Assembly: GCA_964363685.1 (NCBI GenBank)
Contig: CAYIJG010000002.1
Location: 2,377-34,498 of the forward strand
Origin: an uncultured Gammaproteobacteria bacterium
Lineage (GTDB): Bacteria; Patescibacteriota; Patescibacteriia; Magasanikbacterales; GWA2-37-8
DNA length: 32,122 nt
Direction: 5' to 3'
Under the pieces are notes generated by a model. That model ran no database searches and was not told the DNA's origin. It saw only the letters and a program-made list of their open reading frames with translations. A program made the position numbers and the translations under genes. How positions within the stretch are numbered: the stretch's first letter is position 1; each line of letters starts with the position of its first letter. Positions 5,814 to 28,995 of this stretch are shown here, one piece after another.

Positions 5814-6722
5814 ATGCTTCCTCTCCGCATTAATCAAGTCACTAAAATTTTCAAAAATTCCAAAGGCGTAGAATTCAAAGCCGTTGATGGGGTAACTTTA
5901 GATATTGAACCAGGCAAAATCTATGGCCTGTTGGGGCCAAATGGCGCTGGCAAATCCACGCTTATCAATATGATTAGCGGTATTTTGCGTGCCTCTGAAG
6001 GCAAGATTGAAGTTTTTGGTTTAGATGTCGCCAAAGAAGCGAGCCAGACCAAACAAATGATCGGGGTTGTGCCGCAAGAAATAGTGATGGAGATGGCTTT
6101 TACGGTGGAAGAAGTGCTGTATTATTTTGGCGGGATGTATGGCGTTGCTCGGGCTGACCGCAAAATCCGCATCAAGCAGGTTTTGGAAGATTTAGGTTTA
6201 GAAGACAAAATCCACGAACGCGCGCGCAATCTTTCTGGTGGGATGAAACGGCGACTGATGGTGGCCAAAGCAATTCTGCACAAACCAAAACTGCTTATTT
6301 TGGATGAACCTTCGGCTGGAGTTGATGTTAGTTTGCGTCAGAAAATCTGGAGTCTGGTCCGTCGACTAAATGAAGAGGGGACGACAATTGTATTTACTAC
6401 GCATTATTTAGAAGAAGCCGAACAGCTCTGTGAATCAATCGCGCTCGTAGATCACGGTCACCTTATCAAGAGTGGCAAGTTAAAAGATATTCAACAGGAG
6501 TTCTCTAAAAACACTATCCACTTTGAATTGTTTGATCGTGTGGTTACGCCGTTAGCCGGAGTTTCAGAAGTGGGGATAGAATATGAATATCCGATTAGTA
6601 CAAATTTGGCTACTGATATGGCCAAGCTTACCAGTCACTATAATCATAATTTGAAATCAATTCGTTCGGAGGCCGCATCGCTTGAATATATATTTTTGAA
6701 GTTAACCAATAATAAACTTTAG
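5814..6722 (+). CDS. ABC transporter ATP-binding protein (ABC-2 exporter type)
   Basis: Walker A GPNGAGKST, signature LSGGMKRRL, Walker B LLILDEPSAGVD and an H-loop TTHYLEEA. Confidence 0.9.
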   Translation: MLPLRINQVTKIFKNSKGVEFKAVDGVTLDIEPGKIYGLLGPNGAGKSTLINMISGILRASEGKIEVFGLDVAKEASQTKQMIGVVPQEIVMEMAFTVEEVLYYFGGMYGVARADRKIRIKQVLEDLGLEDKIHERARNLSGGMKRRLMVAKAILHKPKLLILDEPSAGVDVSLRQKIWSLVRRLNEEGTTIVFTTHYLEEAEQLCESIALVDHGHLIKSGKLKDIQQEFSKNTIHFELFDRVVTPLAGVSEVGIEYEYPISTNLATDMAKLTSHYNHNLKSIRSEAASLEYIFLKLTNNKL

Positions 6723-6723
6723 T

Positions 6724-7479
6724 ATGCAAGCAAACATGTGGGCATTGTACGCGAGAGAAGTCAAGCGTTTTCAAAAAATTTGGATGGATACGGTGTTTAG
6801 TCCGATTATTTCCATTGCCCTATTTTTAGGTGTATTTGGCATTGTGACTTCCGGTCGTGAGGTAGAGGGTCTGCCATATTTAACTTTTGTTTATACTGGA
6901 TTGTTGGCCATGCTTGTGATTAACAATAGTTTTTCCAATCCGTCTTTTGCGCTGGTGATCTCCAAAAATCTTGGAAACATTATTGATTTACAACTCGCGC
7001 CGATTGCGCCCTGGCGAATTGGTATTGCCTATGCGCTGGCCGCTCTCACTCGTGGGGTAATCACTTTTGTTATTGCGATTCTGGCGACAGTGTGGTTTAT
7101 TCCTGGCCTGGGTTTCCCTTTGCATCCTTTGTATTTTATCCTGGCTTTATTTTTTACTGGTTTGGAATTTGGGATGCTCGGGGTGGCCTTTGGTTTCTTG
7201 GCCAAGAATTTTGAAGCCCTGACTTTTATGAATACGTTTGTGATGCAACCGATGATATTTTTGGCCGGAGTATTTTATCCGGTAGCTGGTTTGCCTCACC
7301 CTTGGAATATAATTAGTCTTTTTAACCCCCTGCATCATAATGTCAATTTTTTCCGGTATGCCATAACTGGTTATTTGGATTTTAATCCAAATATTTCTCT
7401 TCTTGTGATGCTAGGTTTTTCGGTGGTGCTATTTGGGGTGATGCAGTGGGCGACAAAACGAAATATTAAAATGAAATAA
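6724..7479 (+). CDS. ABC-2 family transporter permease
   Basis: 251-aa protein with about six TM segments. It begins 1 nt after the ATPase stop, so the two are probably translationally coupled. Confidence 0.8.
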   Translation: MQANMWALYAREVKRFQKIWMDTVFSPIISIALFLGVFGIVTSGREVEGLPYLTFVYTGLLAMLVINNSFSNPSFALVISKNLGNIIDLQLAPIAPWRIGIAYALAALTRGVITFVIAILATVWFIPGLGFPLHPLYFILALFFTGLEFGMLGVAFGFLAKNFEALTFMNTFVMQPMIFLAGVFYPVAGLPHPWNIISLFNPLHHNVNFFRYAITGYLDFNPNISLLVMLGFSVVLFGVMQWATKRNIKMK

Positions 7480-8113: not shown

Positions 8114-8142
8114 TTGACAAACCCCAGCTTTTCTGCTATACT
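8114..8142 (+). promoter_or_regulatory. Sigma-70-type promoter (TTGACA-17 nt-TATACT) for the DEAD-box helicase transcript
   Basis: TTGACA at 8114-8119, a 17-nt spacer, and TATACT at 8137-8142. It shares the 13-mer TACTATTGACAAA with the promoter at 27712. Confidence 0.6.
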
Positions 8143-8276
8143 AGCGACTTCTTAATAATGGCTACCAATATGGTTAGCCAAGGACTCGACAGGTTGTTCA
8201 ATCTGTCGTCCCGGGTTTATCCCAGGACGGATCTATTTTGTGTCATTAGCAGTATTTGACCTTGTGGAATTCGTCC

Positions 8277-26014: not shown

Positions 26015-26176
26015 ATGTCTGATGATACAATTCGTCATTTGGTTGCTATTTGCGCCACTCTTATCTGCGCTTTAGCCTATTATAGCGGCTGGATATCAAG
26101 CGAGTTCGGTTGGTGGTGGACGGTTTTTGCTGTATTTATTGTTTACGGAGGAATTTTTAAAATTCTTAAGCACTAG
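26015..26176 (+). CDS. Small two-TM membrane protein (53 aa), absent from the ORF track
   Basis: An ATG at 26015 opens a frame to the TAG at 26174-26176: MSDDTIRHLVAICATLICALAYYSGWISSEFGWWWTVFAVFIVYGGIFKILKH. An extended -10 element TGGTATAAT at 25924-25932 lies upstream. The next gene starts 14 nt downstream. Confidence 0.5.
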   Translation: MSDDTIRHLVAICATLICALAYYSGWISSEFGWWWTVFAVFIVYGGIFKILKH

Positions 26177-26190
26177 CGCTTAATTTTTGT

Positions 26191-27639
26191 ATGCCACCTC
26201 TATTTGATCTTCCATTTAATGTTTCTGTGGATCTTTCTGTTTGGGGAACGATTCTCAATTTACCAACCTTTGAGTTAATCAGAGTCCTTTTTGCTATCGC
26301 TGGCTGGACTCCGCTGGCTTTAGTTCTTTTTTATTTAGGATCACATCTCTGGTTAGAACTAAAAGAAGACCTCTATAAACATCATTGGCAGTGGGTAGTT
26401 TTGGCGATAGATGTTCCTGTTGATACCGTACAAAGCCCAAAGGCGGTAGAGCAGATATTTTCCCAACTTAGTGGTGCCTTTGCCGATCCAAATTTTGGTG
26501 AAAAATATTGGGGTGGAGTCAAAGAAAGATGGTTTAGTTTTGAAATTATTAGTTTAGAAGGATATATCCAATTTTTAGTTTACACCGAAATTAAATTTCG
26601 AGATTTGGTGGAAGCGGCTGTCTATGCACAATATCCAATGGCAGAAATAACCGAAGTGGAGGATTATGTTAGTGTTATCCCAGATAAATATCCAAACGAA
26701 ACCCACGATATGTTTGGGGTGGAGTTTGGACTCGTAGCTGAAGATCCGTATCCGATTAGAAACTATGATGAGTTTGAGCATAATATTTCTAAAGACGTAA
26801 CATTCGCTGACCCGATGGCTGCGGTTTTAGAAAATTTTACTCGTATTGGTGCAGGAGAAAATTTATGGCTACAAATTATTATTGAGCCTGTTTCTGGTCA
26901 ATGGAAAAAGAAGGGGATAGATATTGTCAAAGGCACCTTGCAACACAAAGGACAAGAGTTGGTAAAGAGTATAGTAGAGAATAAAAAACCACACCACGAA
27001 CAACACTTTTTTCTCAAATGGATTAATATTGGTTTAGATACAATTATTCACCAAGTTATTCCACCCCATGAAGATGAGCATGGCGCTAAAACAGAAGTTC
27101 CTAAAGACGGCAAGGTGTCTGACATGACACCAGGTTTAAAGGATACTGTGAAAGCTATAGAAGAAAAGATAAGCAAGGTTGGGTTTAAGACAAAAATTAG
27201 AGCTATGTACGCAGCCAATAAAGAAGTCTTTAATCCAAGCCGTTGTTTAGATGGTCTTGTGGGTGCCTTTAGTCAGTTTAGTTATCCACAGCGCAATGGG
27301 ATCGTACCAAAAGGTACCACTTCGGCTCACTATGCTTTCAAAAAAAGTAAGATTGCTCATCTCAAGAGAGATTTTGTTAAGGCTTATAAAAAAAGAAAAC
27401 TTAAAATGGGAAAAAATCCTTATATTCTTAATGTGGAAGAACTAGCTACGATTTGGCACTTTCCATTACCGCTTGTTAAAGCTCCGTTATTGCAAAAGAC
27501 TGGTAGTAAGCGCGCGGAAGCTCCTATTAATCTTCCAGTAGAAGTATTTTCTGAGAGTCCTCTAAAAAAGAAAGTAGTGGTAGCGCCTGAACTGGAAGAA
27601 GAAAAGAAAGACGAACCGCCGGAATTGATGTGGGGATAA
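26191..27639 (+). CDS. Membrane-anchored conserved hypothetical protein
   Basis: 482 aa with N-terminal TM segments, then VVLAIDVPVDTVQSPKAVEQIFSQLSGAF...AVYAQYPMAEITEVEDY...LATIWHFPLP. From memory this resembles a family common in reduced-genome bacteria. Function unknown. Confidence 0.7.
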   Translation: MPPLFDLPFNVSVDLSVWGTILNLPTFELIRVLFAIAGWTPLALVLFYLGSHLWLELKEDLYKHHWQWVVLAIDVPVDTVQSPKAVEQIFSQLSGAFADPNFGEKYWGGVKERWFSFEIISLEGYIQFLVYTEIKFRDLVEAAVYAQYPMAEITEVEDYVSVIPDKYPNETHDMFGVEFGLVAEDPYPIRNYDEFEHNISKDVTFADPMAAVLENFTRIGAGENLWLQIIIEPVSGQWKKKGIDIVKGTLQHKGQELVKSIVENKKPHHEQHFFLKWINIGLDTIIHQVIPPHEDEHGAKTEVPKDGKVSDMTPGLKDTVKAIEEKISKVGFKTKIRAMYAANKEVFNPSRCLDGLVGAFSQFSYPQRNGIVPKGTTSAHYAFKKSKIAHLKRDFVKAYKKRKLKMGKNPYILNVEELATIWHFPLPLVKAPLLQKTGSKRAEAPINLPVEVFSESPLKKKVVVAPELEEEKKDEPPELMWG

Positions 27640-27711
27640 ATTTGCTCTATTTTTAAATTGCTAATATTAGCCAAAATATATAGCATCTCGTGGATAAGTC
27701 CAGCTTTACTA

Positions 27712-27740
27712 TTGACAAAATGGGTAATTTATAGTATACT
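27712..27740 (+). promoter_or_regulatory. Consensus-like sigma-70 promoter (TTGACA-17 nt-TATACT) driving the orphan ncRNA
   Basis: TTGACA at 27712-27717 and TATACT at 27735-27740, with a 17-nt spacer. The architecture and the upstream TACTATTGACAAA match the promoter at 8114. Confidence 0.65.
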
Positions 27741-27746
27741 GTTTTA

Positions 27747-28417
27747 TTAAGTCTAAAAAACTTAATTTGTTCTTTAAATTAAATATCGAGTCCCGCAATA
27801 CCGCTTATGTTTATAAATTTAGTTTTATAGGTATAAACGGTGTTGTGGGAGGTACCCCCGCAGACATCGGGTCTGAACAGATCACGGTTTGGGAGCGCTT
27901 CTTCATGGATGCGTTTACCCCACCGGGTAGAGTATTTCTGTTCTGACTTACGGTCGAAAAGTCACTTGTTTCGTTTCGTAGAGATGGGTCGGGTCGCCTG
28001 CGCGACCAACAGTCCCATAAGGTGGACTGAGCTGACTGCGGTTCTTGTCTTTGTGAGTACGGTTACGTGACATGCGCGGTCGTCGGCGACTGGAACTGTG
28101 GGAGCTATCGAGCTCCAAATGTGCAAGAGATAGGGGTAGTGGACAGCTTGTCAAAAAGCTGGGAGTCGATTTGCGTGAAATCGATCTCCACAATGGCGCT
28201 TCTAAAGGCCATTCGTTCTATGGGTTGGACTGACAAAACCGTCAGCAACCTGAAAAGTCACGGACACGAAAGTGCCAAAAAATAGTCTGCGCTGACTGAA
28301 GGTCAGGCGTGGAGGGTCACGGCGCCTATAAAGCCGATTTCTTTGTTCATTTTTAAAAAGATGAAAGATGAACGAAGAAAAAATAAAAACAGCTGTTACA
28401 GCTGTTTTTATTTTTGT
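27747..28417 (+). ncRNA. Unclassified large structured RNA (about 650 nt) with its own promoter and terminator
   Basis: The GC-rich block at roughly 27840-28330 contains no protein-like ORF. At least eight local hairpins can be read: 27861-27875, 27984-28018, 28101-28116, 28144-28161, 28162-28189, 28192-28213, 28230-28245 and 28292-28306. The decamer GAAAAGTCAC occurs at 27956 and 28252. A 12-bp hairpin lies at 28339-28379 and a terminator at 28380-28417. No downstream plus-strand gene follows. Confidence 0.6.
28380..28417. terminator. Bidirectional rho-independent terminator shared by the plus-strand ncRNA and the minus-strand B12 operon
   Basis: AAAAACAGCTG-TTA-CAGCTGTTTTT is flanked by an A-run on the left and a T-run on the right, so it reads as a hairpin plus U-tract on both strands. 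Confidence 0.8.
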
Positions 28418-28467
28418 TTAGGTTTTGACTAATATATAATAATCTAGTCCACCTTATTTATTGAGAC

Positions 28468-28995
28468 CTATTTTAGAAACACGGGGTTGCTTCGTCGCTG
28501 TACTCCTCGCAATGATATAATTAATTCCATCCCACCAACCAAAACTCCAACATAAAATAAATCTCCAAGAAGACTATTTCTAAAGAACGGTAGGGCCATC
28601 ACATAGCTTTGTAAGAGACCGTTTAGTGAATGTGGGTACATAGTGCCAAAAGCCCAAACGGCCCAATTGGTAGTGATAAAGAAAATGATACTTGCTATCA
28701 ATGTTCCTCCTAGCACAGCGTGAAACTTCTTATTATTTTTGATCGCTAAACCAATTAGGCCTGTAACAATAAAAGCCAAATAAACAGTAAGCATAATTTG
28801 CCATTGGTAAGAACCAAGTACAATGTCGCTTAAGACTACCGCAGTCAGAGGAATTATAAGCGCCCATTTTTTTGGTAAGTATATTCCGGCAAACAAAGCG
28901 ATACCGGCAATGGGCGCGAAGTTGGCTGGATGGGGGAGAAGTCTGGAGAACAGGCCAAGGACTATGAGAAGAAAAGCAGGGAGATATTTTTGCAT
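28468..28995 (-). CDS. Small polytopic membrane protein (about 5-6 TM), candidate vitamin substrate-capture/transport component (DUF6580-like)
   Basis: 175 aa and hydrophobic throughout. It is the last gene of the riboswitch-controlled operon, with a 4-nt gap to the upstream gene. The family assignment is from memory and is tentative. Confidence 0.6.
   Translation of the reverse strand: MQKYLPAFLLIVLGLFSRLLPHPANFAPIAGIALFAGIYLPKKWALIIPLTAVVLSDIVLGSYQWQIMLTVYLAFIVTGLIGLAIKNNKKFHAVLGGTLIASIIFFITTNWAVWAFGTMYPHSLNGLLQSYVMALPFFRNSLLGDLFYVGVLVGGMELIISLRGVQRRSNPVFLK

Follow-up and report, generated by a model that had tools for sequence, protein, structure and literature searches.

What does a GC-rich gap between two convergent protein genes encode in an AT-rich bacterial genome? 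The question is raised by an intergenic block of 828 nt (27640-28467) in a 32,122-nt stretch of contig CAYIJG010000002.1 (assembly GCA_964363685.1), the whole of which we call the window. The DNA comes from a groundwater bacterium, Candidatus Magasanikbacteria, of the Candidate Phyla Radiation (CPR, also Patescibacteria), and the block separates a DUF8128 gene from a DUF6580 gene. A preliminary description, made from the letters and open reading frames (ORFs) alone, had taken it for an orphan structured RNA. The block is non-coding in character, carries promoter and terminator signals, and has a predicted pairing that is biased toward one strand. Its sequence is real, being present in independent assemblies; it is absent from close relatives, and its promoter module is homologous with those of other lineages. 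We lean toward a species-specific, functional, stand-alone accessory RNA that would be structured and act in trans, while stopping short of calling this probable.

The compositional contrast noticed at the outset is easily reproduced. In 200-nt windows, GC content is 0.475-0.54 across 27800-28299 against 0.30-0.41 in the flanks, and the GC-rich core of ~480 nt, at 48-54% GC, sits in a genome of ~37% GC. Could the block be an artifact of assembly? A chimera was ruled out: the 921-nt stretch 27600-28520 is found in four other assemblies of the same strain, three of groundwater from Hainich well H51 and the fourth a Logan assembly of SRR32696702, at 99.9-100% identity and with at most one difference each. 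An insertion that overwrote the C-terminus of DUF6580 was likewise rejected. The DUF6580 tail here resembles that of L022, one of the relatives' loci (all numbered with an L), so that the tail of the sister species is the diverged one and the insert is confined to intergenic space.

Signals for transcription lie at both ends of the block. The sigma-70-type promoter announced in the preliminary description, TTGACA-17-TATACT, agrees with the consensus at 11 of 12 positions and predicts a transcription start near 27747. Promoters of that quality occur only twice in the whole window, both strands included, where 0.95 would be expected by chance; the second, at 8114, drives a DEAD-box helicase gene. 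Since the two have in common the extended 13-nt TACTATTGACAAA plus TATACT, the promoter of the block looks native and strong. It starts 73 nt past the DUF8128 stop and is preceded by the motif TTAGCCAAAA, which may be an UP-like element or a factor-binding site. At the helicase gene, a ~110-nt leader that contains three hairpins comes after the promoter (8114-8262; folding z -3.11), and the helicase start is a TTG at 8256. This leader has no Rfam match and may be autoregulatory.

At the 3' end stands a palindromic intrinsic terminator that adjoins the end of the GC-rich part and is shared by the RNA (+ strand) and the DUF6580 operon (- strand). The order of a hairpin followed by a bidirectional terminator was thus described correctly at first, but the hairpin itself was not: it is AU-rich and has 15 bp rather than 12.

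Does the block encode a protein? Its longest ORF is at most 81 aa, and a six-frame Pfam scan of the block found no match in any frame. A three-base periodicity is absent, both from the block as a whole (z 0.4-1.1) and from the candidate ORFs (z -0.4 to 1.1, GC flat by codon position), whereas the neighbouring genes reach z 5.9-19 and seven payload ORFs at the corresponding place in relatives reach z 3.3-19.6, with a GC content at third codon positions (GC3) of 0.63-0.91. In 120-nt windows a single window attains z 2.6 and there is otherwise no residual signal. The most protein-like stretch, an 84-codon open frame, had no match among 1.84 billion representative proteins in a full HMMER search. 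A concatenated six-frame query against a 5.8-billion-protein index also returned nothing; this index is word-limited and the test a weak one, as a fragment of one protein known to be indexed was also missed. These results bear out the initial view that the ORFs are not protein-like, and the block does not carry the GC3-biased small-protein payload of its relatives. On the same grounds (no Pfam match, no protein-database match apart from the weakness of the six-frame test, and no match for the 84-codon frame) a degraded coding gene was rejected. An alternative genetic code was rejected as well. Frame +1 is interrupted by TGA stops only; the neighbours read normally in table 11, and the frame is without three-base periodicity.

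If the block is an RNA gene, does it belong to a known family? The preliminary description could assign it to none and proposed an Rfam scan, which bears this out. At gathering score, Rfam 15 has no match anywhere in the window, and at E≤10, over 27600-28500 and over 27785-28335 (551 nt, relaxed filters), it returns only terminator-like and microRNA-like noise. ARAGORN found neither a tRNA nor a tmRNA in the window. RNase P RNA is recognized by its conserved regions CR-I (GAGGAAAGUCC) and CR-V (ACAGAA..GGCUUA), which form helix P4. No RNase P model matches the block even at E≤10, and although CR-I-like strings, GAAAAGUCAC, occur twice, the sequence has no complementary GUGACUU partner. For tmRNA, which is marked by a tRNA-like domain with an alanine acceptor end and by a tag frame, ARAGORN and Rfam at E≤10 were negative. 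OLE RNA would be expected to fit the RF01071 consensus and to be associated with oapA, oapB and oapC. The block has no Rfam match, and its neighbours are Sec, DUF8128, DUF6580 and DUF4430 genes. ROOL, GOLLD and HEARO (the omega RNA of IscB, beside which an IscB or IsrB gene would be expected) gave no Rfam match at E≤10.

Group II introns have a 5' GUGYG, a catalytic AGC in domain V, a bulged A in domain VI and a 3' AY. Neither Intron_gpII nor group-II-D1D4 matches either strand at E≤10, and no 34-nt hairpin resembling domain V is present among the predicted helices of the + strand. The domain scan of the window's ORFs found no reverse transcriptase, IscB or TnpB, in keeping with the early remark that no such partner is adjacent; it did identify SecA, SecD, SecF, DUF8128, DUF6580, a prenyltransferase-like protein and DUF4430. 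Tandem interspaced guide RNA (TIGR) arrays, CRISPR, diversity-generating retroelements and retrons were rejected, there being no periodic repeats, no second copy of any segment in the window and no reverse transcriptase.

What shape would the transcript take? All statements on the fold are predictions from a single sequence and as such do not testify to a selected fold. The full-length fold of the + strand has -249.6 kcal/mol (z -7.25) and that of the - strand -200.9 kcal/mol (z -4.9); for the 481-nt core, z is -3.19 (+ strand) against -1.93 (- strand). Of the 184 pairs of the + strand structure 26 are G-U, against 6 of 162 on the - strand, and this excess agrees with the orientation of the promoter. 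Some 30 helices of at least 3 bp are predicted, most with a pair probability above 0.9, which exceeds the eight or more local hairpins first read by eye. In 150-nt windows, local z is about -4 at 27700-27924, -2 to -2.5 across 28075-28374 and -4 to -6.7 at 28300-28524. From 5' to 3', the transcript would consist of a small AT hairpin, a 26-bp hairpin, a branched domain of ~290 nt, a series of short hairpins and the AU hairpin with the terminator (Table 1).

Two repeats within this region deserve mention. The decamer GAAAAGTCAC is indeed present twice, at 27956 and 28252, as the preliminary description had it; by our own calculation the chance of one repeated 10-mer in ~670 nt is roughly one in five. 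An internal duplication was rejected, since the two halves are not significantly similar (9/300 shuffles) and the decamer recurs no more than chance allows. The other repeat is an inverted one, perfect over 12 nt, of which ~0.03 are expected by chance in the 920-nt region. It pairs ATAAGGTGGACT at 28017-28028, which spans loop and 3' arm of the hairpin at 28010-28029, with AGTCCACCTTAT at 28446-28457 on the + strand. The latter lies outside the terminated transcript, 31 nt beyond the terminator and 10 nt short of the DUF6580 stop, and the complementarity is possibly a coincidence.

Table 1. Features of the block, of its neighbours and of the corresponding loci in relatives. Positions refer to the window unless a locus is named.
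Feature	Position	Strand	Remarks
DUF8128 gene (482-aa product)	26191-27639	+	Upstream neighbour of the block
Upstream motif TTAGCCAAAA	27667-27676	+	Common to the promoter modules of L039, L043 and L046 as TTAGC[C/G]AAAA
Sigma-70-type promoter	27712-27740	+	-35 TTGACA 27712-27717, 17-nt spacer, -10 TATACT 27735-27740
Small AT-rich 5' hairpin, 8 bp	27762-27782	+	Equivalents after the -10 box in L039, L043 and L046
Long hairpin, 26 bp (13 + 13), 5 G-U	27791-27850	+	Pair probability 0.97-0.99; local z -4.1
Multi-branched GC-rich domain	27853-28138	+	Predicted; weak local z
Closing helix of branched domain	27853-27863 with 28096-28100 and 28133-28138	+	Predicted
Hairpins inside branched domain	27875-27943, 27964-27989, 27992-28007, 28010-28029, 28031-28087, 28101-28116	+	Predicted
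Row of simple hairpins	28144-28336	+	Predicted; local z -2.0 to -2.5
Hairpins within this row	28144-28161, 28162-28189, 28192-28213, 28222-28251, 28262-28276 (GAAA loop), 28286-28313, 28320-28336	+	
AU-rich hairpin, 15 bp	28340-28378	+	Predicted; directly before terminator
Palindromic intrinsic terminator, 17-18 bp	28379-28415	both	T runs on both strands
DUF6580 gene	28468-28995	-	Downstream convergent neighbour of the block
Insert-bearing loci of relatives (L035, L036, L039, L043, L046, L058, L060, L079, L081, L086, L090, L093, L097)	DUF8128 stop to DUF6580 stop		
Payload ORFs of relatives	L039:5299-5499, L043:5227-5424, L046:5261-5566, L060:5080-5568, L093:5122-5466, L090:5176-5793 and 6419-6775		

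Is the gap between DUF8128 and DUF6580 occupied in other species? The relatives compared comprise ~90 loci, among them 5 metagenome loci and 80 species-representative loci (of at least 565 DUF8128 loci), and cover ~1% of each genome. Inserts of 230-2100 nt with differing contents are present in 13 of the 37 loci in which DUF8128 and DUF6580 are convergent. In six of them (L039, L043, L046, L060, L093 and L090; ~42-53% identity) a + strand TTGACA-17-TATAxT promoter lies 61-158 nt past the DUF8128 stop, and at least seven slot loci have a strong + strand promoter at 60-160 nt, the range in which that of the block falls. The most economical reading is that the gap is a recurrent variable payload slot, in which the present species has a non-coding payload. 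The preliminary description was right about the promoter, the terminator and the non-coding character, but it missed this slot and the protein cargos that relatives carry in it.

The ends of the unit recur more faithfully than its contents. Judged by its sequence, the promoter end is homologous with those of L039, L043 and L046. All four have the upstream motif and, at the transcript start, a small AT hairpin preceded by 'TGTTA'; 39 nt of the spacer are 79% identical to the L046 promoter (E 2e-4). At the terminator end, the predicted architecture of a hairpin and then a bidirectional terminator is similar to that of the L039 and L043 units, and a local alignment of the 3' part with L043 reaches z 6.35, though it is AT-rich. 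The promoter is lacking, along with the cargo, in empty sites.

The payloads themselves are unrelated from lineage to lineage. Those of L039 and L043 consist of a structured leader and a two-helix membrane protein of 65 or 66 aa; others encode a 101-aa membrane protein, a 162-aa protein and cysteine-rich proteins of 114 and 118 aa, and the overall range is 65-205 aa. No Pfam family was found for any of the payload proteins of the slot. Their ORFs, with the GC3 values given above in genomes of 38-44% GC, look compositionally foreign. The block has no similarity beyond noise to the payload proteins or leaders of relatives, and it is the only ORF-less payload seen in the slot. The leaders at L039:5159-5214 and L043:5091-5146 have in common a hairpin of ~24 bp with 3-4 compensatory pair changes and without an Rfam match, which may be a cis-regulatory element. 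As to ribosome binding, in the L039, L043 and L046 lineages the payload genes come with clear GGAGG-type sites, and most genes in the present genome have AT-rich upstream regions without a recognizable Shine-Dalgarno sequence (21 genes, e.g. 1237, 19047, 26191, 28995).

What, then, is the payload of the present genome? We propose that a strong host-type sigma-70 promoter would produce a discrete, non-coding, GC-rich transcript of ~620-670 nt, from ~27747 to ~28415. Such an RNA would be an accessory rather than a housekeeping molecule; its fold would matter, and it would presumably act in trans. The stable hairpins at both ends probably shield it from exonucleases. A role as a protein-binding scaffold or decoy would be a guess.

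Several observations weigh against a functional RNA. None of the ~90 relatives has a homologue of the payload at the syntenic locus. In the sister-species loci L005, L006 and L019, whose DUF8128 is 89-90% identical in amino acids, only 0-170 nt stand at the position of the block, and the same is true of the gap in L001, L002, L004, L010, L020, L022 and L023 (63-76% identity, DUF6580 adjacent). Neither nhmmer nor blastn found a match to the block in the metagenome loci or in the 80 species-representative Magasanikbacteria loci (609 kb), and a covariance model of 28140-28318, built from the single sequence, recovers nothing in 715 kb apart from that sequence. When 185,579 species genomes were scanned with a 19-mer, there were 0 matches; five DNA seeds gave two matches in viral contigs, both confined to the seed itself, and 18 translated seeds (three scans) gave none. 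BLAST against phages and plasmids found no match. The scans of large collections rely on exact seeds and are blind below ~85-90% identity, so that the absence of a homologue holds for the orthologous site and not for genomes at large. As no homologue of the payload was found, there is neither covariation nor evidence of selection on the fold. The fold itself is uneven: 150-nt windows starting at 27850-28000 have z of only -0.6 to -0.9, the central 300 nt do not outdo shuffled sequence at this window size, and the strongest signals come from near-palindromes at the ends, which are equally strong on the opposite strand. The earlier claim of a structured RNA therefore stands for the two ends, where the folding excess is strong, but is weak for the centre. 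Finally, the GC richness may only reflect the source of the DNA, the protein payloads of the slot being GC-rich as well. The preliminary description had named a lack of conservation among relatives as a ground for refutation. Conservation is missing everywhere it could be sought, at syntenic loci, in the seed scans and in phages and plasmids, and within that scope the proposed lineage-specific family of large non-coding RNAs fails, no second member having been found. In the intergenic regions L001:7455-7490 and L022:4900-4935 there is a repeat of the GTCAT(T/C)CCGAAC type (tgtcattccgaacggagc in L001, tgtcatcccgaacaatgtcatcctgaac in L022), a small repeat element unrelated to the block.

Chief among the alternatives is that the block is a transcribed but functionless relic: a foreign GC-rich cassette, once a small gene with its leader, would have landed in the slot and lost its reading frame, and only the promoter and terminator, needed by both neighbouring genes, would be maintained. 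We consider this unlikely, though it deserves to be taken seriously. That six other lineages carry GC-rich protein-coding payloads in the slot and the present one alone is without an ORF, that the block is confined to one species, and that its centre has no significant excess of local folding all favour decay, and there is a weak DNA similarity to the small ORF of L039 (z 3.3, 3/200 shuffles, uncorrected for 8 tests). Other observations oppose it. Apart from the one 120-nt window at z 2.6 there is no residual three-base periodicity, and no translated similarity connects the block to the payload proteins of the slot or to proteins in large databases. The block has kept a GC content of 53%, against 37% for the genome, and neither the G-U pairing of the + strand nor the core z of -3.19 would be expected of a dead gene. 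Could the transcript instead be an mRNA that encodes a very small protein and whose untranslated regions are long and structured, like those in the units of L039 and L043? Candidates are a 28-aa ORF from the ATG at 27984, a 53-aa ORF at 28072-28233 and a 36/30-aa ORF ending at 28285. The same-position units of relatives are indeed mRNAs with leaders of 140-300 nt and small ORFs, and the missing Shine-Dalgarno sequence is uninformative where most genes lack one. Yet this is improbable: unlike every payload ORF of the relatives, the candidates have neither three-base periodicity nor GC3 bias, none is hydrophobic like the L039, L043 and L046 proteins, and their start codons are buried in stable predicted helices. 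The 84-codon frame, which contains the 36/30-aa candidate, has no homologue; the other candidates were covered by Pfam and the word-limited six-frame search.

The remaining two accounts fare worse. A non-autonomous mobile element, either a miniature inverted-repeat transposable element (MITE)-like sequence bounded by terminal inverted repeats or a group II intron that lacks an ORF and sits beside a terminator, would agree with the presence of the block in one species and its absence from the closest relatives. An imperfect 13-nt inverted repeat brackets the unit (27664-27676 and 28423-28435), and the block adjoins an intrinsic terminator, which is where class C group II introns sit. But the left 'repeat' is the promoter-module motif of other lineages and hence no transposon end, there is no clean target-site duplication, neither the 32-kb window nor 715 kb of relatives contains a second copy, and neither a group II domain match in Rfam at E≤10 nor a reverse transcriptase was found, which makes a mobile element very unlikely. 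Least credible of all is a highly diverged RNase P RNA, tmRNA, signal recognition particle (SRP) RNA or 6S RNA missed by the Rfam models. CPR RNase P RNAs are diverged and fall below the usual thresholds, so that lowered thresholds and manual refolding are needed to find them (PMC8172020). Even at E≤10, though, no RNase P, tmRNA, SRP or 6S model matches, and ARAGORN is negative; ~650 nt far exceeds the length of an RNase P RNA, and an essential single-copy gene would not be expected at this conserved locus in one species when three sister-species loci at 89-90% identity lack it.

A separate variation between assemblies lies upstream of the DUF8128 gene. Two other same-strain assemblies carry seven clustered substitutions within 40 nt (26131-26170), with spacings that are all multiples of three, inside a conserved small ORF of 53 aa (26015-26176). 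Beyond this cluster, 4 kb are identical save for one difference at 28990 in one of the two assemblies. The cluster may mark a tract of recombination or the hypervariable end of a peptide.

Why does the block matter? To our knowledge no large structured non-coding RNA beyond the universal ones has come from the CPR, and we found none in the literature searched. A 600-nt CPR RNA would, if confirmed, be a first, and structural work would have a good target in it; as a single-species orphan, its value is mainly that of a lead. The context is perhaps worth more than the RNA: one fixed site with GC-biased cargos and a strong promoter, and a module homologous in four lineages, hint at how reduced genomes take up and express foreign accessories. 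A bolder reading, to which we give little weight, makes the block the founding member of a new class of structured non-coding RNAs in the CPR, large (~600 nt) and carried as interchangeable cargo of a recombinase-free expression slot with conserved promoter and terminator modules, from which other Magasanikbacteria express small protein genes of foreign composition. If true, ultra-small symbiotic bacteria would in effect possess a natural site into which acquired accessories, RNA or protein, can be plugged.

How does the block compare with known systems? It is an unclassified candidate for a stand-alone bacterial structured RNA gene and, having one member, makes no family. The likeness to OLE, GOLLD, ROOL and HEARO drawn in the preliminary description does not hold to that extent, as those RNAs are defined by conservation and covariation and no second member was found for the block. 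ROOL and GOLLD belong to the large ornate RNAs of bacteria and often lie on prophages or elsewhere in variable DNA. The block resembles them in being a non-coding, stand-alone unit of 500-800 nt with many hairpins, a patchy strain-level distribution and no obligatory adjacent protein gene. It differs in adjoining neither tRNAs nor phage genes, and in being a single sequence without an Rfam match at E≤10, whereas those two families have hundreds of members and covary strongly. OLE RNA, which is limited to anaerobic or extremophilic Firmicutes and conserved across genera, is similar in its ~600 nt, its GC richness relative to the genome and its high degree of structure (predicted, in our case). 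The block, however, has no match to it in Rfam, and oapA, oapB and oapC are absent among the neighbours. The closest counterparts are the units in the slots of L039, L043, L046, L060, L093 and L090, with the same position, orientation and GC-rich interior, and in the first three also a homologous promoter module (the TTAGCCAAAA motif, TTGACA-17-TATACT and the 5' AT hairpin). These units encode proteins of 65-205 aa with a strong three-base periodicity, whereas the block has neither a coding signal nor similarity to them. The slot as a whole can be likened to integron cassettes, by analogy only. It has no integrase, attC-like sites or cassette array, and its promoter vanishes with the cargo from empty sites; what the two have in common is a single site that holds differing foreign cargos from lineage to lineage, with a strong promoter at a fixed position.

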